From a virus: DNA of 64,000 nucleotides. The stretch is taken from positions 716 through 64,715 of IMG/VR virus record IMGVR_UViG_3300021422_000208; one strand, 5' to 3'. Below, one piece after another: positions 1,451 through 27,800 of the stretch (the stretch's first letter is position 1; every line of letters starts with the position of its first letter). A program made the translations under genes and the position numbers. The notes under the pieces are model-generated. The model searched no databases and was not told where the DNA came from. It was given only the letters and a program-made list of their open reading frames with translations.

Positions 1451-1503
1451 AATTCTCTTCCAGATGATGATTTGGTGTGTGGATTTAGGTGACTTATTTC
1501 TCC

Positions 1504-1521
1504 TAAATATAGTAGTATTTA
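1504..1521. promoter_or_regulatory. Divergent pair of T4-type late promoters (TAAATA)
   Basis: TAAATA on + at 1504-1509 and on - at 1521-1516, between the divergent gp26-like and tape measure starts. Confidence 0.6.
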
Positions 1522-1547
1522 TATTCACATTTTACTGGAACTTTTTT

Positions 1548-4500
1548 ATGGACAACACTGACATTGAAAACCTTGGCAAAATAATAGCCGCATCACTAAC
1601 ATCAAAACTTGGCATCGGCAATTCGACGGCGCCAGCTGCTTCCGCACCAGCCTCCACGAGTGCAGCAACCGATGATTATCTAGCCAGTATAGGCAAGCTC
1701 ATATCTTCGGCTAAGGAATTAGGACAGGAATATATTCCACTAGCAGCTGGTATGTTGAATTTTGCAAATTCAACAACTGCGGCATCAAATTCCCTTCAGG
1801 CATTAAATCTCACTAACAACAAGGCTATTGCATCTATCACGAAGTCTTTGGAAACTAGCCGTGCGCAACTTAATGAGGCTGGTAAAGTTGGTATTGGTGG
1901 TGGTAGTCCATCTGCGTTAGGTTTAGAAGCAGCGAAATCTGGATTGACCATTGCTGAATTCACAAAAACTATAGCGGATTCGAATGGGGCATTGGCTGGA
2001 CTTGGTCGAACTGCCAAGGTTGCTGTAGAAAACTACTCAGATATTACCAGTCGAGTTTTAGAATCGACTGCCGGTAAACAATTAATTGCCTCCGGTATGC
2101 AAACTGCCGAAATGGCTAAGTTAACTGCCATTGTTAGTATGAGCACCAAAGTCAATGCGAGTGACATAAAAGGGCGTGAACAATTGGCAGCATCAACGCT
2201 GTCATTGGCAACCCAACTCGATGAAACCGCCAGACTTACTGGCCTTAATCGAGAAACAATGGCAAATGAGATTGCGGAACGGAATAAAACCGCCGAAAGC
2301 ATTGCTTGGCAGCGTACACTATCAGTAGACCAGCGAACTGCTTACACAGAGATGCAAGGCACCCTTGCGGACTTGGGTGACGAGGTAGGTAATGCCATGT
2401 TAAATGTAGTAGCAGGCGCTCGAATGACTGATTCGACCATAGCTACCAAGATTGCGCTGGGTGAAAGCTGGACCGAACTTGAAGCAGCAATGGTTCAACG
2501 GAAGAATGCCGTCGGGGAAGCGGAGATTGCAGCTGCTAAGGACAGGTTGGAACAGGCACGGATTGGCGCATTAGAATACCAAAAGACGAGTCAATTCCAA
2601 AACCAAACCCTGTACAATACCTCCGAGATCGGTACCAAGAGTTTAAAAATTGCAAAAGACAGCGATGCAGCATTCAACGCCTTACAAAGCGGTGCCAAGG
2701 AACTTAAAAAACCATCCGAGGTAAAAACAGAAGTACAGCAGAATCAATTAGGCTTGGATGCATCTGGTAAGCCGTTGGCCGGTGCGGCGGTTATGACTGA
2801 AATTAATAAAGGATTCGAAGGGATTCGACTGGCTGCGGTCGGTGGTGCAGGTGCGGTTGATAAACTCAACAATACACTAAGTGCCACTCCTGCAGTGGTT
2901 AACTCAGTGACTGAATCCTTTAAAATGTTAGGTAATTTTAATAAAACTAGTGCACAATATACTGATGAAATGGCGGCAATGCCTAAGAAAGTGGCTAGTG
3001 TACTCAGTGGATTAGTAACACCTGGTGCCACAGTTGCTCCTATCAGTGGCCCTGCTACTGCTACTCCTTCGTCTGCCTACATCGATGTAGGCAGACGATT
3101 GGATGAGCAAGTGGCACTTAATCCAAATCCACATCCACTTAAACGCAAAGAAGGTTCGCTAGGTGCTACTGGTTCGATGATTGAAGATTTTGGTACCGAA
3201 ACCCCTGCGCTATTGCATGGAAAAGAGGGGGTTATTACTGAGAATCAATTTAACGATATAAAATCACAATTTAAATTATTACAGGCAAATGTTCGTGAAG
3301 TTCCAGCTCATGCTAATAAAGTTGGAAATAGTGGATTTACTGATTTTGAAAAACCGTCCAATGAACTTCAAAATCAAACAAAAGCAATCGAAAGCAATGC
3401 CGATCGTGATATATTTGGCGATGCCACTAAGCAATTATCATCATTGTTTACCAATAATGAAAAATCCATTAAGGATCAATTAGGTAATTTTCAAAATCAA
3501 ACAAAAGCAATCGAAAGCAATGCCGATCGTGATATATTTGGCGATGCCACTAAGCAATTATCATCATTGTTTACCAATAATGAAAAATCCATTAAGGATC
3601 AATTAGGTAATTTTCAAAATCAAACAAAAGCAATCGAAAGCAATGCCGATCGTGATATATTTGGCGATGCCACTAAGCAATTATCATCATTGTTTACCAA
3701 TAATGAAAAATCCATTAAGGATCAATTAGGTAATTTTCAAAATCAAACAAAAGCAATCGAAAGCAATGCCGATCGTGATATATTTGGTACCAGTAATGAC
3801 TTTTTAGAAACTGCTGGTGAAAAAATAACGACTATTTTTTCCAATACTGATAAATTAGCCAAGGAGCAATTGGGTGTATTCAATAACCAAGTAAAAGACC
3901 TCGGTGGAAAAAAAGAGCATGGTATATTTGAAGAAATAACTAAGCAAATTTCGTCGATTTCATCGATATTCCTAGATGAAAAGAAGACAAATCAGGATCA
4001 ATTAGCCGGGGTAAAAGTTCAAGTAAAAGACCTCGGTGGAAAAAAAGAGCAACCGTATAATCCAGGAAATGTTAAGTACCAATTGAAACCTGAGACTTAC
4101 AATGAAAAACCAATAGGTGGGTCATCTGGTCATGGACACGTTGAATTGGGTCCTCGTTACCGACATGAAGAACGTGATCCAGTCGTTAGTGGCATTAGTA
4201 AGTTAGATCAGGAATTGAGAAAATTAACAAATATGGCGTCAAATACTGATAATATCAGTAAACAGGCATCTGAATATTTATCGAAAATTAACATCAAGTA
4301 TACTGACACGAAGGTTGGGAATGCGCCGGTAATTAACAAAATTCCCGAGGTTGGCCGAATTGAGAGTAAAATACCAACCAGGGACGTAATGGCACCGCAT
4401 GTTCCATCTGACGAATATAAAAATAAGCCAGTAGTAAGTAAAGAACCTCCGGTTATTTCCCCAATTGCGCCAGTTGGGGAAATAACTATAAAAGATTTAC

Positions 4501-4622
4501 ATACCGCACTGATTAACTTAAATACCAACATGATGCGCATGGTGAGTTATACTGAATCAATTAGTGAATCTAGTCACAAAACGGCTAGACATACTAGGGA
4601 ATCAACTGGCTTACGAATGTAA
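1548..4622 (+). CDS. Tape measure protein
   Basis: Long Ala/Leu/Thr-rich helical protein (~1024 aa from MDNTDIEN at 1548), next to the hub gene and upstream of portal, with internal tandem repeats. Confidence 0.7.
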   Translation: MDNTDIENLGKIIAASLTSKLGIGNSTAPAASAPASTSAATDDYLASIGKLISSAKELGQEYIPLAAGMLNFANSTTAASNSLQALNLTNNKAIASITKSLETSRAQLNEAGKVGIGGGSPSALGLEAAKSGLTIAEFTKTIADSNGALAGLGRTAKVAVENYSDITSRVLESTAGKQLIASGMQTAEMAKLTAIVSMSTKVNASDIKGREQLAASTLSLATQLDETARLTGLNRETMANEIAERNKTAESIAWQRTLSVDQRTAYTEMQGTLADLGDEVGNAMLNVVAGARMTDSTIATKIALGESWTELEAAMVQRKNAVGEAEIAAAKDRLEQARIGALEYQKTSQFQNQTLYNTSEIGTKSLKIAKDSDAAFNALQSGAKELKKPSEVKTEVQQNQLGLDASGKPLAGAAVMTEINKGFEGIRLAAVGGAGAVDKLNNTLSATPAVVNSVTESFKMLGNFNKTSAQYTDEMAAMPKKVASVLSGLVTPGATVAPISGPATATPSSAYIDVGRRLDEQVALNPNPHPLKRKEGSLGATGSMIEDFGTETPALLHGKEGVITENQFNDIKSQFKLLQANVREVPAHANKVGNSGFTDFEKPSNELQNQTKAIESNADRDIFGDATKQLSSLFTNNEKSIKDQLGNFQNQTKAIESNADRDIFGDATKQLSSLFTNNEKSIKDQLGNFQNQTKAIESNADRDIFGDATKQLSSLFTNNEKSIKDQLGNFQNQTKAIESNADRDIFGTSNDFLETAGEKITTIFSNTDKLAKEQLGVFNNQVKDLGGKKEHGIFEEITKQISSISSIFLDEKKTNQDQLAGVKVQVKDLGGKKEQPYNPGNVKYQLKPETYNEKPIGGSSGHGHVELGPRYRHEERDPVVSGISKLDQELRKLTNMASNTDNISKQASEYLSKINIKYTDTKVGNAPVINKIPEVGRIESKIPTRDVMAPHVPSDEYKNKPVVSKEPPVISPIAPVGEITIKDLHTALINLNTNMMRMVSYTESISESSHKTARHTRESTGLRM
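3367..3787 (+). repeat. Perfect in-frame 123-bp tandem repeat, ~3.4 copies (41 aa FQNQTKAIESNADRDIFGDATKQLSSLFTNNEKSIKDQLGN)
   Basis: Copies start at 3367, 3490, 3613 and 3736 and are identical at nucleotide level. Confidence 0.95.
3888..4051 (+). repeat. 32-bp direct repeat CAAGTAAAAGACCTCGGTGGAAAAAAAGAGCA
   Basis: Copies at 3888-3919 and 4020-4051, in frame (132 nt apart). Confidence 0.9.
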
Positions 4623-4650: not shown

Positions 4651-7600
4651 ATGAGTTGGCGGAAATATTTTACCCCAGTTGACACTGAACTAAGTCCTAT
4701 TTCTGGACTTAGTAATTTGACCAAAGCAGGTCCAGCTAGAACTAACTATTCCAGCTATCTACCTGATGTGTACACGGGTAGTCCCAACCGAGTGGAACGG
4801 TACCAGCAGTATGAAGTTATGGATAGTGATCCAGAAGTAAATGCTGCCCTTGACATTCTAGCAGAATTTTGTACACAAAAATTAAAGGATGGAAAAAGCC
4901 CCTTTACTGTGAAATGGAGAAGCAAAGCTACGAATTCTGAAATTCGTATTCTGGGTGAATATCTACAGCAATGGAATAAATTGCAACAATTTGATACTCG
5001 TATTTTCCGTGTAATTCGTAATGTTTACAAATACGGTGATGCTTTTTTCATCAGAGATCCAGAAACACAAAAATTAAGTTGGGTTGACCCCAGTAAGATT
5101 GTTAAAATTATTGTCAACGAAAGTGATGGTAAAAAACCTGAACAATATATCATAAAAGATCTAGCGCCAAATTTTGAAAATTTAGTGGTAACACAAATTA
5201 CACCTAATATTAATTCAAGGCAAGCAGGTGGCGGCATGACTTCCGGTGCTGGTGCCTTGGGTTCACAAAGTGCACAACGAGGTGCGTCAGGTCCATACCC
5301 AAGTAGCAGTACTGGTAGTAGATTTGGATTGGCTGAAACTGAACATGCCATAGATGCAGCGCATGTTGTCCATATATCATTATCCGAAGGTCTCGATAAC
5401 AATTATCCATTTGGCAATAGTTTATTGGAAAATGTCTTTAAGGTTTATAAACAAAAAGAATTGCTTGAAGATGCTGTATTGATATATCGCATTCAACGGG
5501 CACCTGAGCGTAGAGTATTCCACATAGACACTGGTAATATGCCTAGTCATATGGCAATGGCATTTGTTGAACGTGTCAAGAATGAAATACATCAACGAAG
5601 AATACCTAGCCAATCCGGCGGTGGATGTTTTGAAATGAGCACTCGAATTCCATTGTTGGATGGCAGGATACTTTCAATTTCAGAATTGGCACTTGAATAC
5701 TCAGCCGGTAAGGAAAACTGGGCATATAGTTGTGATCCAATTAATCTGACAATTGTTCCTGGTATAATTTCATGGGCGGGTATAACACAACAATCCGCAC
5801 AGGTAATTGAGCTTATTCTTAGTAATGGGTCAATCATTGTGTGTACACCTGAACATAAATTTCCAACAGTTAATCGCGGTGAAGTCGTGGCATCTGAATT
5901 AATTTTACACGATGATAGTTTAATTGGCTTTAATGGTGAATTAAATCCACTTGGTAACGACACAATACATACAGTCGTATCTAGTCGCATATTAGATGAC
6001 TTAATTGAAGTTGGTACGTTAACTATCGATGGTGATGAAAAACAACATGCACATCATACATTTGCGATAGAACAAGGTGTCTATACATATAATTCAAATG
6101 TCATTGATTCCGCCTATAATCCACTCTGCTTAGACCTGTTAACCGAGATCCCATTACTAGATGGTAGAATTTTGACATTATCTGAATTAATATCTGAATT
6201 TGAAGCAGGCAAGGAGAACTGGGCATATAGTTGCGAACCTACAACTGGTAAAGTTGTACCAGGAATCATTAATTGGGCAGGCGTTACTCGTAAAAATGCG
6301 GACGTTATTAAGATAACATTCGATAATGGTAAGACTTTAACCTGCACACCTGATCATAAAATACCTGTATTTGACAAGGGTTTTGTTGAAGCAAGTGAAT
6401 TGACCATTGATGATGTTTTAATGTCATTTAATACTAGGTTGGAGTCAGTTAATGCTTCGCAATTGCAGCAGGTATGGGATCACGAAGCTAAATCTTGGGT
6501 ATGGACACGTCAATTAGTTGGCGATTTTTTCAAAGCCATTAGTAAACACCAGGAATTTACTTACCTGGAAGAAAATATAAATGCTGTCAAAACTGTAATT
6601 CATAACAAAGACGGTGATATATCCAATAATGACCCACGTAATTTATCATACATGAATAAAAAAGATCATATTTCGTATTTTAATGAGCAATTTGATTTTG
6701 ATGTCACCGGCGATATTGAATATTTGGAAGAGAACATTTTACCAATCGGGAAATCTGTCAGTAACATTAGGATCGCTAGTATTGAAAAAGTTCAATGTAT
6801 GGATGTTGGTACAATTACAATTGATGGCACTGGTAGATGGCATTCATATCATACATTTGCTATTAATAGTGGTATTTTTGTCAAAAATTCAATAAATGAA
6901 GATTATTTTTTCCCAATGACTGCCGATGGTCGTGGTAGCAAGGTAGATGTGTTACCGGGTGGATGTTTCGCGATGGACACTCAAGTATCATTACTAGATG
7001 GCCGTGAATTATCCATTACCGATATTGGGCATGAATTAAAATCTGGAAAAGAATTATGGACATACTCATGCCACCCAACGACCGGTGCTATTGTACCTGG
7101 GTTAATTAGTTGGGCAGGGGTTACACAAGCATCAGCCAAGGTTATGAAAATAACACTTGATAACGGCGAGGCTATTATATGTACCCCATGTCATAAATTT
7201 CCGCAGTATGCAAATGAATATAAACGCGCAGGGAATTTTGCGGTAGGTGATAGTCTTATTCCGATGTATCGGAAACATGAAACATTATCCAATGATAGTA
7301 ATCACGAATATGAACAAATATTCGATAACGCAACAAATAATTGGGTATTTACCCACATGATGGTGGCTGAAAATCTCAAAGATACCAGAATTAGTTATAA
7401 TATACACAATACCAATGTCCGTGAAGTCGGTACTGTTAAATTTAAAAAATTAGCAGATACAACGATCCTATCGAAAAATGGAATCGGTGATAGCCGCATG
7501 AAATATTGGTCTGGTAAACATCGTAAAAGTCGAATTAATTTATCAGCTTCACAATCAAAGATAGTTTGGTCAGATAAATTGGGGTCGTTAAAATGTAAAT

Positions 7601-8637
7601 CACCACGTCCAGTCGAGTATTCTCATGCTATACTACTGGCAGTTATTGATATGATCAAAGATACAACCGCTCATAGTTTTACCTGCAATGATGTCATCAA
7701 TGAATTAAATAACAGACCAGAACTATTGGCAAAATTGCGTGAATTAAATAAATTTTCACAAACTAATAATTGGTCAATCAATGATGGATTCACTGCGGTT
7801 GGGATAGTCGATATGATCACTCAATTTGGGTATGACAATTGGACTGATTTTAGAAATAAAGAAAGTACACATAATCATCGGATAATTGCAATTGAACATT
7901 TAGATGAAGAAATTGAAGTTGGTACATTAACTATTGATTTTGATGAAGAATTTCATAATTACCATACATTTGCGTTGTCAGCTGGTGTTATGACTTTCAA
8001 CAGTAACCTCGGCGAAATTGATGATTTAAAATATTTTACTAATAAATTATTCCGTGGTTTACGAATTCCTAGTAGTTATTTACCAACCGGTGCAGATGAT
8101 AGCCAAGCCAGTTTCAATGATGGACGGGTCGGGACTGCTTATATTCAAGAATTGCGGTTTAATAAATATTGTGAACGATTGCAATGGTTGATGACATCAG
8201 TATTTGATGATGAATTTAAACTATACATGAATTCACGTGGTGTGAATATTGATGCTAATTTATTTGAGTTAAACTTCAATCCACCCATGAATTTCGCGAG
8301 TACTAGACAGAGTTCATTGGATAGTGAACGCATTAATACATTTTCAACTATTCAAGCGATTCCATTTATGAGTAATCGATTTGCTTTAAAACGATTTTTA
8401 GGATTAACTGATGATGAAGTTGCTGAAAATGAACAATTATGGGCGGAGGAAAATGGTAAAGGTCAAGCAACCCATACTGATGCCGCCGGTGAATTGCGTA
8501 GTGCTGGATTATCCGCAGCCGGTATAGCTGGTGATTTGGACATGGCCACTGATATGTCTGCCCCAGATGATATGGAAGGGGATATAACTGGTGAATCAGG
8601 GGCAGCGCCAGCGCCAGTAATTCCACCGATGACATAA
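4651..8637 (+). CDS. gp20: Portal protein (gp20-like) precursor containing three inteins; predicted spliced product 572 aa
   Basis: Portal motifs LEDAVLIYRIQRAPERRVFHIDTGNMP, SINEDYFFP..GRGSKVDVLPGG, NLGEIDDLKYFTNKLFRGLRIPSS. First gene of the head cluster. Confidence 0.92.
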   Translation: MSWRKYFTPVDTELSPISGLSNLTKAGPARTNYSSYLPDVYTGSPNRVERYQQYEVMDSDPEVNAALDILAEFCTQKLKDGKSPFTVKWRSKATNSEIRILGEYLQQWNKLQQFDTRIFRVIRNVYKYGDAFFIRDPETQKLSWVDPSKIVKIIVNESDGKKPEQYIIKDLAPNFENLVVTQITPNINSRQAGGGMTSGAGALGSQSAQRGASGPYPSSSTGSRFGLAETEHAIDAAHVVHISLSEGLDNNYPFGNSLLENVFKVYKQKELLEDAVLIYRIQRAPERRVFHIDTGNMPSHMAMAFVERVKNEIHQRRIPSQSGGGCFEMSTRIPLLDGRILSISELALEYSAGKENWAYSCDPINLTIVPGIISWAGITQQSAQVIELILSNGSIIVCTPEHKFPTVNRGEVVASELILHDDSLIGFNGELNPLGNDTIHTVVSSRILDDLIEVGTLTIDGDEKQHAHHTFAIEQGVYTYNSNVIDSAYNPLCLDLLTEIPLLDGRILTLSELISEFEAGKENWAYSCEPTTGKVVPGIINWAGVTRKNADVIKITFDNGKTLTCTPDHKIPVFDKGFVEASELTIDDVLMSFNTRLESVNASQLQQVWDHEAKSWVWTRQLVGDFFKAISKHQEFTYLEENINAVKTVIHNKDGDISNNDPRNLSYMNKKDHISYFNEQFDFDVTGDIEYLEENILPIGKSVSNIRIASIEKVQCMDVGTITIDGTGRWHSYHTFAINSGIFVKNSINEDYFFPMTADGRGSKVDVLPGGCFAMDTQVSLLDGRELSITDIGHELKSGKELWTYSCHPTTGAIVPGLISWAGVTQASAKVMKITLDNGEAIICTPCHKFPQYANEYKRAGNFAVGDSLIPMYRKHETLSNDSNHEYEQIFDNATNNWVFTHMMVAENLKDTRISYNIHNTNVREVGTVKFKKLADTTILSKNGIGDSRMKYWSGKHRKSRINLSASQSKIVWSDKLGSLKCKSPRPVEYSHAILLAVIDMIKDTTAHSFTCNDVINELNNRPELLAKLRELNKFSQTNNWSINDGFTAVGIVDMITQFGYDNWTDFRNKESTHNHRIIAIEHLDEEIEVGTLTIDFDEEFHNYHTFALSAGVMTFNSNLGEIDDLKYFTNKLFRGLRIPSSYLPTGADDSQASFNDGRVGTAYIQELRFNKYCERLQWLMTSVFDDEFKLYMNSRGVNIDANLFELNFNPPMNFASTRQSSLDSERINTFSTIQAIPFMSNRFALKRFLGLTDDEVAENEQLWAEENGKGQATHTDAAGELRSAGLSAAGIAGDLDMATDMSAPDDMEGDITGESGAAPAPVIPPMT
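5626..6093 (+). mobile_element. Intein 1 (mini-intein, 156 aa)
   Basis: Begins CFEMSTRIPLLDGR after GGG, has block B CTPEHKF, ends HHTFAIEQGVYTYN followed by Ser. Confidence 0.9.
6127..6888 (+). mobile_element. Intein 2 (254 aa) with a degenerate HNH-like insert
   Basis: Begins CLDLLTEIPLLDGR, block B CTPDHKI, insert VIHNKDGDISNNDPRNLSYMNKKDH, ends YHTFAINSGIFVKN followed by Ser. Confidence 0.9.
6964..8001 (+). mobile_element. Intein 3 (346 aa) with a basic, probably decayed endonuclease insert
   Basis: Begins CFAMDTQVSLLDGR, block B CTPCHKF, ends YHTFALSAGVMTFN followed by Ser. Confidence 0.9.
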
Positions 8638-8930: not shown

Positions 8931-8944
8931 TGGGTGCTAAAATT

Positions 8945-8952
8945 TATAAATA
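8945..8952 (+). promoter_or_regulatory. T4-type late promoter TATAAATA
   Basis: Full consensus upstream of the head core gene. TAAATA cores also occur at 8635, 8879, 17663, 18681, 24748, 30112, 34960, 55866, 60834, 61560, 63359 and 63780 (+) and at 51868, 55237 and 55860 (-), each just before a structural or nuclease gene. Confidence 0.75.
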
Positions 8953-8996
8953 ACGTAAATATAATACAGCCTTATAACAAATTACAGGAGATTGAC

Positions 8997-9860
8997 ATGA
9001 GTGATAGAGTACAATTTGAAGCTATGCTTGAAGCTTTGATCAATGAGGATCAAGCAGCAGCAAAAGAGATTTTCCATAACATCGTGGTCAATAAATCTCG
9101 CGAAATTTATGAAGAATTATTAGAATCTGACTTTGGTCCTGAAGAAGACGAAGATGAGGACGAAGATGAAGATGAAGACGAAATTGCTGATGATTCAATC
9201 GACACCAGTAATCCATTTGGCGCAACTGATGACGACGAAGAACCTGAAGAAGACGAAGACGAAGGTGAATTATCAGATAGAGTTATGGATTTAGAAGATG
9301 CTCTGGAAGACTTGAAACAAGAATTCGAAGAATTGATGGCTGGCGAAGAAAATGAGCCAGAACATGCTGATATGTTTGGCGGCGAAGAAGAAGAAGGCGA
9401 AGACTTCGATACTGAAGACGATGAATTTGGCGGCGAAGAAGACGAATTTGGTAGTGAATTGCCCGATGACGAAGATGAAGTAAAAGAAGTCCATATGTAT
9501 CATCACGATGGCGATAAGAATAAAGAAAATGATGAATTTGAACAATTTATGGAATACGTGAACAAAGTTTCTTTACCAACACATGGTGACAATGGTGTTC
9601 AAACACGTAGTGCTATCGCGGGTAAAAATGATATGGGCGGTACCACTGCTAATATCACTAAAAGCTTCGCTACCCAAAAGGGTGGTACACAAGGTGGCTT
9701 ATTGAATCCAAGTACACGACCACAAACTGGTGGCAATATCAATGTACCAGGTGCTAAAAGTGCTTCAAAATTAAAACCAGTTGGTAAAGGTCATGGCGCT
9801 GAAAAGAAAGGCACTAGTGATAAACCTGCTAATGACAGAAGCATGATAGGCAGTAGATAA
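8997..9860 (+). CDS. Highly acidic prohead core protein (gp67/gp68-like position)
   Basis: GGAG RBS then MSDRVQFEAMLEALINED; long D/E tracts; upstream of the protease. Confidence 0.7.
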   Translation: MSDRVQFEAMLEALINEDQAAAKEIFHNIVVNKSREIYEELLESDFGPEEDEDEDEDEDEDEIADDSIDTSNPFGATDDDEEPEEDEDEGELSDRVMDLEDALEDLKQEFEELMAGEENEPEHADMFGGEEEEGEDFDTEDDEFGGEEDEFGSELPDDEDEVKEVHMYHHDGDKNKENDEFEQFMEYVNKVSLPTHGDNGVQTRSAIAGKNDMGGTTANITKSFATQKGGTQGGLLNPSTRPQTGGNINVPGAKSASKLKPVGKGHGAEKKGTSDKPANDRSMIGSR

Positions 9861-24849: not shown

Positions 24850-27800
24850 ATGGCTATTGGTCGAATTTCTGGTCCGCTCTTAAAGGCAAATTTACTTCGT
24901 GATGGAGTTGATCTTGCGTTTGAGTCGGATTTATTATATCTAGATGTTATAAATAGGCGAATTGGTGTTAAGACAAAGACGCCATCCCATGACTTAACCA
25001 TCGATGGTACCACCCGCACTACGAATTTGCTTGTTGATACTGCTGCTACTATTGCCACTATTTCTATCAGTGGTAATACTATTGCTAGTAGTAATTCCAT
25101 TATTAATTTATCCCCTAGTGGCAGTAATCCAGTAGTCTATCAAGGGACTATTGTAGTTGACCAATTGCATTTATCCAACAATACAATCCAAACAGTTGGG
25201 ACTGCGACGGATTTAAATATCAGTACGACTGGTACTGGTAAGGTCATAGTCAATGCTGCCGTGATGATACATGGTAATTTACATGCAACTGGTACTATTA
25301 CCGCCGATGGCAATATTACAATTGGCAATACCACTACTGATAGTGTTACTTTCAATTCAGATGTAGCTAGTGACATATTGCCAGATTCTCCCAATTCGTA
25401 TGATTTAGGCAGTGATCCATTACTTGGCGGACATGCTTGGAAAACATCTTATATCAATGACATGCATGCCACTAATATAGTTTCAGACACCATTGTGGTA
25501 AATGATATTAATTTAGTATTGCCAAATGGGCATATCAGATATGTTGCAACTACTGGAAATGACACCAACCTGGGCGTTCATGAGCACAATCCATATCTAA
25601 CAATTAAACATGCATTAAGTCAGGCAGAAGTTGGTGATGTCATTTATATATACCCAGGTACTTATATTGAAATATTTCCATTAACGGTGCCAGTGGGTGT
25701 GACGATACACGGGTCTGGTTTGCGAACAGTTACCATTCAGCCTACCATTGGTACGATTGATAATGATGCATTTTTATTGAATGGTGAGACCACTATCGAA
25801 GATTTGACTATTAGTGGTTATCGATTCAATTCAACTAATAATACCGGTTACGCATTTAGATTTGCTAATAATTTCACAGTAACGATTCGCAGTCCATATG
25901 TACGGAATGTTACGATTATTTCTCGTGGATCAGTTGTTACGAGTGATGATCCATATGGATTTGATAGTAATGATGCCGGGAAAGGAGCATTTTTAGATGG
26001 CAGTATTGCAAATTCGGCAAGTAAAGAAGCAACTTTATTATTTCATTCAGTTACATTTTTCACACCTAATCAAGAAACGATAATTGCTACTAATGGCATT
26101 AGATGTGAATTGATAAATTCATTTACATATTTTGCTGATAAGGGAATATACGCATATTCAAGTTTAAGTGGCTTTGCTGGGGAAGGATTAACTCGCTTGC
26201 GAATTGATGTTAAACTTGGTTCTTGGATGGTAGGAGACACCGTGTCATATTATGATATTGATGGCTCAACTGTGTTGGGATTTGGTGTTGTAGCCAGTTT
26301 GGTTGGTGATTATGTTAATTTGATTGGTCGCCAATTGGGATTTAATACAATAATTGACCGGTCAACTAAATTTATCTACGCCAATGGCAATGCTCATCAA
26401 TCAACTGCGCATTTTAAATTTGGAACTGCTAGTTTATACCTAGATGGTATTAATAGTTTTATAAATGTTGCCAGTCAACCTGATTTCAATTTTGGAACTG
26501 GTGATTTTACTATCGAATTAAATATCTATAGAACGACTGATTCGGTATCACCGCAGACGATACTTGACATGCGGACAGCAGCTCCGCAAGTTGCGCCATT
26601 GCTTTATTTAAAATCAACAAATGTATTAGCATTAACTGTTAATGGGGTAGAGGAAATAGTTGGTAGTAGCATACCAATGTCATCATGGATTCATATTGCG
26701 TTAGCTCGGCATGGAACTTCTACTCGGTTATTTGTCAATGGTTACCAAGCTGGCTTGACTTATACTGACACAAATGTTTACATTCAAAGTCCGGTGCGGA
26801 TAGGCGCTGCGTATGATATAAGTGATCTATTTACCGGTTATATTGATGATTTTAGTATTAGCAAGGGTATTGCGAAATATACTACTACTTTTGTGCCACC
26901 GACTGTTGCGTTGCGTGGTGACACTTCAACTGTTTTGCTCTTACATTTAAATGGGGGTAACAATTCAACTGCTATATTAGATGATGGCATAACAATTCAA
27001 GATATTCGGGCTAGTTCCGGCGGTACTGCTTCTATTATAAATTTTGCTGATTATTCAGATTTTGGTGCTGAAATTAGGGTTATTGGGTCCGCTAACATGT
27101 ATGGTAATCATGGTGTGTATGCTACTGGCATTGGTGTAACAATACATCTAATTGCGCATACATTTTCATTTATTGGTACTGGAAAAGATTCATCAAATAC
27201 AAGTAACCCACTTGATAATTACGAGCAGTATGAAATTACTAAACTGGATGATGCAGTTATTTATTACACTAGTACTAACGAACATGGTGATTTTAGGGTA
27301 GGTGATAATTTTTATATAGATCAACGCAGTGGTGAGGTTTTATTTAATAATCAAAATCTAACAATTACTAGTGCCACTGGGGTGACTTTCACCAATGGGA
27401 TTGATACTACTACCATTACGTATGAGGATATTACCACTGGTAATATCAGAATTAGTGGTAATACAATTGCGAGTATGCTGGGTGATGTGAATATTACTGC
27501 GGCAAGTGGTATTATTAATCTACAAAATGACACGATTATAACTGGTGATTTGACGGTGACTGGTGATGTAAATATTGGCGGTAATATTACAGTTGGCAAT
27601 CAAACAAGTGACACTGTGACATTTATTGCAGGGATTGGCAGTAATCTGGTGCCATCAACTACATCCTTATATGATTTAGGTACACCTGATCTACGGTGGA
27701 ATGTTGCTCATCTAAGTAGAGTTGAGGTAGATTCATTGGTCATTGATGCTAATACAATCAGTACTACTTATGGCAATGACGATTTAATATTGACTGCTCA

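Follow-up and report, generated by a model that had tools for sequence, protein, structure and literature searches.

Inteins at different sites of one protein have been surveyed in several systems and usually group by site, which has been read as independent acquisition (PMC4760082). In the MCM inteins of haloarchaea, the +1 residue, which follows the intein, is co-converted on invasion (PMC10643990). Inteins of phages frequently do without the penultimate His; splicing of one such intein is better in its absence, a His in block F may substitute for it, and variation of the penultimate residue has been suggested to tune the splicing rate in phages (Kelley et al. 2016, PMC5050341). Here we describe three inteins in a portal gene of the T4 gp20 family, on a stretch of 64,000 nucleotides (positions 716 to 64,715 of IMG/VR virus record IMGVR_UViG_3300021422_000208) that is part of a 72.8-kb viral contig. 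Here 'the window' refers to this whole stretch, in which all coordinates are given.

The gene very probably encodes a T4-type portal with three class-1 inteins that belong to one old, portal-specific lineage with an HNH endonuclease, are alleles of inteins at the same sites elsewhere, have decayed, and would splice conventionally. An original prediction from the window sequence had taken the three for paralogues that spread locally and might allow alternative protein splicing. The comparisons below support its interpretation partly: one lineage did colonise neighbouring sites, with its spread being old and across many phages, not in this genome.

Three inteins in a T4-type portal gene

The portal open reading frame (ORF) matches Pfam PF07230 (T4 gp20-type portal) with 304.6 bits and, as a whole protein, PF14890 (intein splicing domain) with 94.3 bits at a cut-off of 35.8. 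When the inteins are scanned singly, they score 27.7, 41.8, and 39.1 bits (inteins 1, 2, and 3), intein 1 alone falling below the cut-off. Among the 80 nearest IMG/VR portal loci, the ORF is complete in 71; 70 of these are intein-less with about 562–593 amino acids (aa), and the remaining one is interrupted by a single intein, at a site different from the three of the window. The window portal minus its three inserts is 572 aa long and aligns without gaps to the 70 intein-less homologues, and an intein-less relative matches T4 gp20 structures (PDB 3ja7 and 6uzc) with an expectation value (E) of 1e-32. Conventional splicing of each intein by its own halves would convert the 1328-aa product into a 572-aa portal, collinear with these relatives.

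The range 5626–8004 that had been assigned to the inteins is correct, as 5626 is the first base of Cys1 in intein 1 and 8001 is the last base of Asn in intein 3, while 8002–8004 is the +1 Ser codon. The lengths claimed for the two intervening extein segments, or mini-exteins, also hold. All three inteins start with Cys and end with Asn followed by Ser (N/S at 3/3 junctions, a slash marking the boundary), and their block-B TxxH motifs are TPEH, TPDH, and TPCH, respectively. C1, T74, and H77 are invariant across 24 family members, and 366 of the 399 extracted family inteins have the form C...N/S. Class-2 and class-3 inteins have no N-terminal nucleophile, and class 3 also has a WCT triplet, whereas 3/3 here start with Cys. 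By Cys1, TxxH, the block-F His, terminal Asn, and Ser+1, the three inserts are class-1 inteins, and their splicing residues are intact.

The fold of intein 1 was modeled with AlphaFold2 using 24 family members as input. The model has the HINT fold with a predicted local distance difference test score (pLDDT) of 94.7, and the linker between its halves is short, roughly 15 residues. In Foldseek it matches DnaE, NrdJ-1, DnaB, and RecA inteins with a probability of 1.00 and template-modeling (TM) scores of 0.73–0.82. By sequence, the only matches among solved structures are NrdJ-1 and a DnaE intein (E of 0.002–0.006).

In intein-less genes, the +1 residue is Q at site 325, S at site 336, and T or K at site 361. 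In the window it is always S, which fits co-conversion on invasion.

The absence of the penultimate His (YN, KN, and FN) and the presence of block-F His residues (H-x-x-H-T-F-A) had been predicted for all three inteins, and both were confirmed. Lys is the commonest penultimate residue of the family (55%), ahead of His (22%) and Phe or Tyr (13%), which makes non-His the rule (78%). Each site has its own preference: Y or F is found at 325, K at 336, and H at 347, while site 361 mostly has K or F. Within the family, the non-canonical C-termini follow the site, and the trait is already known from phage inteins (PMC5050341).

The penultimate residue goes along with two positions of block F. In 248 inteins, a block-F Thr and an extra His, placed three residues ahead of the conserved one (HxxH), accompany a non-His penultimate residue, while 78 inteins combine a block-F Asp, no extra His, and a penultimate His. 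The pattern residues in intein 1 are T131, H141, H144, and Y155, with equivalents in inteins 2 and 3. The raw association of Thr, HxxH, and non-His has a Fisher probability of 1e-58, but it reflects about a dozen tree changes and is phylogenetically clumped. Asn cyclization without the penultimate His might be helped by the extra block-F His, paired with Thr replacing the usual Asp. The non-His trait is known in kind, and the three-position pattern may be new.

One portal intein family with site-specific alleles

The relatives of the window inteins were sought exhaustively with phmmer, using intein 1 against 1.84 billion representative proteins. This gave 605 matches at E ≤ 1e-10, and among the matches listed (the best 149 of 605, the window's own protein excluded), 149/149 are portals. 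A length-restricted search gave 551 intein-bearing portal homologues of 730–2324 aa. The 50,697 GenBank phage records yielded no close relative and only two weak matches, one of 34% in a portal encoded by a 484-kb uncultured phage (LR756508.1) and one of 30% to the helicase intein of a Bacillus phage, which is the nearest intein found outside portals. ESM Atlas look-alikes, with portals excluded, all scored below 0.9 and were generic intein fragments.

Incidentally, the portal-like ORF of LR756508.1 (locus L088, 144734–151072) has inteins from this broad family at two other sites, with the junctions ...LEGK/C...KN/STL and ...YGK/C...HN/TLLED.

Inteins were extracted with hidden Markov models of the N-half and C-half, yielding 374 clean inteins from 265 portals, and were mapped on the extein alignment. 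There are five main sites, 321 (PSQ/S), 325 (GGG/S), 336 (NPL/S), 347 (PQT/S), and 361 (PGG/S), which span at most 40 extein residues in the clip domain, and about 20 others that are used more rarely. The three window sites fall in the latter half of this domain. A 1784-aa portal homologue (P0031) has all five main sites filled, and the extein between its first two inteins is 4 residues long (SGGG). Distant portals of 2296–2930 aa (P0168, P0202, P0183, and P0210) contain four to six inteins each. Some of the inteins in these distant portals start with Pro or Ser instead of Cys and are followed by Cys (WxRNL/P...N/CKYGD); without an N-terminal nucleophile, they may belong to a different splicing class.

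The three window inteins share the motifs LLDGR, GKE.W.YSC.P, VPG.I.WAG.T, and G-T-[LI]-T-I-D ... H-T-F-A ... N, as had been noticed before. In pairwise BLASTP, their N-terminal parts of about 115–139 residues are 50%, 48%, and 39% identical (E of 7e-43, 2e-34, and 5e-38), and their C-terminal 42–49 residues are 37–55% identical. This similarity is far beyond chance, and judged from it and from the endonuclease domains, the whole elements are homologous. The endonuclease domains of different site families are 25–28% identical (E of 9e-22, 6e-18, and 2e-6); their divergence exceeds that of the splicing domains, which would be expected from a change in target recognition. The claim that one lineage colonised neighbouring sites is therefore upheld by the homology of whole elements and the portal hosts of the listed relatives. 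Within the reach of our searches, a single lineage with a probable HNH endonuclease is confined to T4-like portals and spread over many neighbouring sites.

Trees were built on 142 splicing-domain columns, with FastTree for 334 inteins and with IQ-TREE (LG+C20+F+G4) for 75 inteins. Both trees cluster by insertion site, and the 75-intein tree needs 6 site-label changes, the minimum possible. In the IQ-TREE tree, intein 1 falls in the site-325 clade (support 95/93), intein 2 in the site-336 clade (97/82), and intein 3 in the site-361 clade (98/88), with sites 325 and 361 being sister groups (95/98). The best same-site matches in other phages are 67%, 77%, and 78% identical to inteins 1, 2, and 3, respectively, the 77% being with the intein of P0009 over the splicing domain, while the three are 45–52% identical among themselves. 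Because each window intein is thus an allele of a same-site intein elsewhere, they would have been acquired site by site and not copied locally. A phylogeny of the splicing domains, which had been proposed as a check, accordingly gave site-specific clades that are not unrelated but one family, in which the three are not closest relatives.

The sister families 325 and 361 have look-alike targets, GG/xN in protein and GGnGGn/nnnAAc as the DNA consensus of intein-less loci (L007–L086). These are suggestive of ectopic homing, the motif being short.

Movement between phages can be seen when inteins are compared with their exteins. Identities of the two correlate weakly (Spearman 0.12–0.53), and inteins that match intein 2 with 77% identity occur in portals whose exteins are 89%, 78%, and 63% identical to those of the window. 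Both results indicate that the inteins moved between phages.

The window alleles have lost much of their endonucleases. Full-size alleles have about 490 aa at site 325, 421 aa at site 336, and 477 aa at site 361, and those at sites 325, 336, 347, and 361 match Pfam PF13392 (HNH_3) weakly at a shared relative position, with 14.5–21.7 bits, below the cut-off of 24.8. Intein 1 corresponds to a full-size site-325 allele minus about 334 aa, with the entire endonuclease gone. The HNH core survives in intein 2 with HN in place of HH, but a deletion of about 167 aa has removed about two thirds of its endonuclease. In intein 3, about 130 aa including the HNH catalytic core are deleted and the C-terminal endonuclease part is kept; an HNH_3 scan of intein 3 alone gave no match. 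From these deletions, none of the three should be able to home.

We propose the following history. A single lineage of inteins with an HNH endonuclease would have spread long ago over neighbouring sites of T4-like portals. The phage lineage of the window would then have gained its inteins site by site, by homing or by descent, with no local copying among them. All three would now be decaying in the window genome as immobile passengers, and they would be kept because only exact splicing yields a working portal.

Several points weigh against this account or parts of it. The tree draws on 142 columns, with site 361 coming out monophyletic in only 87% of its bootstrap trees. Monophyly of the portal family is judged with a single non-portal outgroup, the Bacillus phage helicase intein, and holds within the search reach. 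The weak intein/extein correlation does not separate window inteins that were inherited from those acquired by homing. The splicing activity of the three is deduced from their residues. As for the catalytic centre, an independent-pairs test of the extra block-F His versus the penultimate His found only 3 pairs on supported branches and was without power, so the link between them comes down to few independent changes.

Coordinates of the features described are collected in Table 1.

Table 1 Features of the portal gene in the window
Feature	Window position	Strand	Description
Portal precursor gene, T4 gp20 family	4651–8637	+	intact ORF, 1328 aa, three inteins inside
N-extein	4651–5625	+	aa 1–325, ending ...SGGG; 62–89% identity to 80 IMG/VR portal loci
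Intein 1, site 325 (GGG/S)	5626–6093	+	aa 326–481, 156-aa mini-intein, ending YN, without endonuclease
17-mer copy 1, in intein 1	5716–5732	+	codons N-W-A-Y-S-C; exact match to 6217–6233
Mini-extein 1	6094–6126	+	11 aa (SNVIDSAYNPL), between inteins 1 and 2
Intein 2, site 336 (NPL/S)	6127–6888	+	aa 493–746, 254 aa, ending KN
17-mer copy 2, in intein 2	6217–6233	+	codon offset equal to that of copy 1
HNH-motif remnant in intein 2	6595–6669	+	aa 649–673; HNH_3 14–16 bits, below 24.8; aligned to HH..NN..N..H of full-size allele
Mini-extein 2	6889–6963	+	25 aa (SINEDYFFP...LPGG), between inteins 2 and 3
Intein 3, site 361 (PGG/S)	6964–8001	+	aa 772–1117, 346 aa, ending FN
C-extein	8002–8637	+	starts SNLGEIDD..., stop codon included; from translation and alignment to intein-less homologues
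Look-alike target, site 325	5605–5625 and 6094–6108		flanks intein 1
Look-alike target, site 361	6943–6963 and 8002–8016		flanks intein 3

The proteins of the window include a T4-like structural module, with gp23 major capsid protein, tail sheath, and gp15-like tail sheath stabilizer recognized by Pfam. Upstream of the portal gene is an ORF of 1052 aa (1464–4622, + strand) without any Pfam match, and its translation shows a tandem repeat with a unit of ~41 aa (NQTKAIESNADRDIFG...) in at least three near-identical copies. Between the portal gene and the ORFs preceding the gp23 gene, a 308-aa ORF (8934–9860, + strand) encodes an extremely acidic, Asp/Glu-rich protein, the position of which presumably matches that of the T4 prohead core and scaffold genes. 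A candidate fourth intein in a 1502-aa ORF (about 25078–25314) was a weak match; Pfam finds only Laminin_G_3 there, and the candidate was treated as a chance match.

Other accounts of the three inteins

We conceived that the inteins could have been kept as regulators, with redox- or time-dependent splicing setting when assembly-competent portal appears. All three have lost mobility yet retain intact splicing residues, and the tuning of splicing rate by the penultimate residue suggested for phages (PMC5050341) would suit such a role. On the other hand, an essential gene has to be spliced exactly, which explains their retention equally well, and the scarcity of inteins among the nearest portals (70 of the 71 complete ORFs have none) argues against a needed function. 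A regulatory role is therefore unlikely.

Cross-pairing of inteins was also considered, in which the N-half of one joins a later C-half so that the mini-exteins are skipped. The C-terminal identities mentioned above make some cross-compatibility conceivable, and domain-swapped intein structures are known (PMC8175363).

The skipped segments were examined in homologues and in T4 gp20. Both mini-exteins are almost invariant across the 70 intein-less homologues and are among the most conserved portal segments. Mini-extein 1 maps to T4 gp20 residues of about 320–328 in the clip domain, and mini-extein 2 to about 329–353, comprising the inner clip loop (R338 and K342) together with the beginning of the channel loop. 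By the same mapping, site 347 lies at the inner clip loop and site 361 in the channel loop (350–359). In T4 gp20, changing R338 and K342 to Ala abolishes packaging, and the clip loops contact DNA (PMC4493910). Given this conservation and this location, a portal without these segments is likely to be defective. No natural gene of the 120 closest intein-bearing portals lacks these extein residues at a junction.

Features of the inteins themselves also weigh against cross-pairing. Each N-half would have its own C-half translated before any foreign one, intein 1 is modeled as a compact 156-aa fold with its halves joined by a short linker, and the site families have long been separate (40–55% identity), which fits mutual insulation. 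Nothing in the sequence data favours alternative splicing, and minor mis-spliced side products may be conceivable. That occasional cross-pairing among adjacent inteins, of which a gene can have up to five or six, yields portal subunits without clip-loop segments that modulate or poison assembly or packaging is quite improbable; that skipping yields functional portal isoforms has even less to commend it. If cross-pairing were true, it would be intein-based alternative protein splicing in a virus, and subunits without clip-loop segments could, as a built-in device, modulate or poison the assembly of the dodecamer or the packaging of DNA.

Recent local spread, by duplication or transposition within the portal gene or by gene conversion homogenizing the three, would account for their identity of 39–50% and for a shared identical run of 17 nucleotides. 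When the three were forced into one clade, however, the log-likelihood fell by 105.9 (approximately unbiased test, p = 0.0082), and same-site relatives elsewhere are 67–78% identical, as described above. Co-resident pairs show no more similarity than pairs from the same two sites in different genes, and slightly less for two of the site pairs, giving no sign of within-gene duplication or conversion. Moreover, the endonucleases of 3/3 are lost or damaged.

The nucleotide match of inteins 1 and 2, offered as a mark of kinship, does exist as a 17-mer with exactly two occurrences. When the codons of both proteins were resampled from the codon usage of the window, however, a run of at least 17 appeared in 25.5% of trials (P = 0.26). 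At identical degenerate residues, the same codon is used in 19/50 cases for inteins 1 and 2, compared with 20/44 and 17/42 for the other pairs. Because such a run is expected by codon chance and codon identity is no higher than in other pairs, the 17-mer is uninformative, and a nucleotide-level link between inteins 1 and 2 was dropped. The claim of local spread thus did not survive, and we hold such an origin to be highly improbable.

Three independent invasions by unrelated inteins sharing only the common intein fold would agree with the usual reading of site-wise grouping in surveys, but are hardly credible given the pairwise E of about 1e-34 to 1e-43, endonuclease domains homologous across sites, portal hosts for all of the 149 nearest relatives listed, and only about 30% identity to the closest non-portal intein.

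Significance and comparison with described inteins

Inteins at different sites are usually seen as independent arrivals, and here a single lineage occupies many adjacent clip-domain sites. Its hundreds of alleles are a data set for how an intein and its endonuclease gain new targets, and they bear on how related inteins in one chain avoid mutual interference and on how the catalytic centre is rebuilt after loss of the penultimate His. For annotation, the 1328-aa ORF is expected to yield an ordinary 572-aa portal. The many short, apparently self-contained mini-inteins of the portal family may interest protein engineers. In the literature searched, we found no description of inteins in T4 gp20-type portals, nor of an HNH-intein family that is restricted to portals, crowds the clip domain, and has a coordinated change in its catalytic centre, as this family appears to do.

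Portal proteins of actinobacteriophages and prophages (SPP1 gp6-like) also contain inteins, in several separate groups (PMC4760082, bioRxiv 10.1101/2025.01.02.630785). They differ in belonging to other portal families and in having LAGLIDADG-type endonucleases. The class-1 inteins of mycobacteriophages resemble those of the window in having Lys, Gly, or Ser for the penultimate His and in counting portals among their hosts (PMC5050341). Unlike them, the window inteins are in another portal family, have two extra block-F changes (Thr for Asp and the extra His), and carry these features site-specifically.

The best structural matches to the intein 1 model are the NrdJ-1, Npu/Ssp DnaE, and DnaB mini-inteins (PDB 8ubs, 4kl5, 1zd7, and 1mi8). 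In contrast to these, the window intein is contiguous and not split, resides in another host protein, and is about 20% identical in sequence. DnaE inteins, too, lack the penultimate His.

Yalala, Lynch and Mills (2022, Biochemistry 61:294) reportedly found alternative protein splicing by inteins of Haloquadratum walsbyi. That would be a precedent for alternative products from multiple inteins, whereas the present data show no such products.

In the haloarchaeal MCM helicase, with its four sites MCM-a to -d, inteins likewise occupy neighbouring sites in an essential protein that handles nucleic acids, and patchy presence, common mini-inteins without endonuclease, and co-conversion of the +1 residue are further likenesses (PMC10643990). 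The window family differs in its host, a phage portal, and in its density, with five main sites within 40 residues and up to five or six inteins per gene. Unlike the MCM inteins, the portal inteins at different sites are demonstrably one family, endonuclease included.

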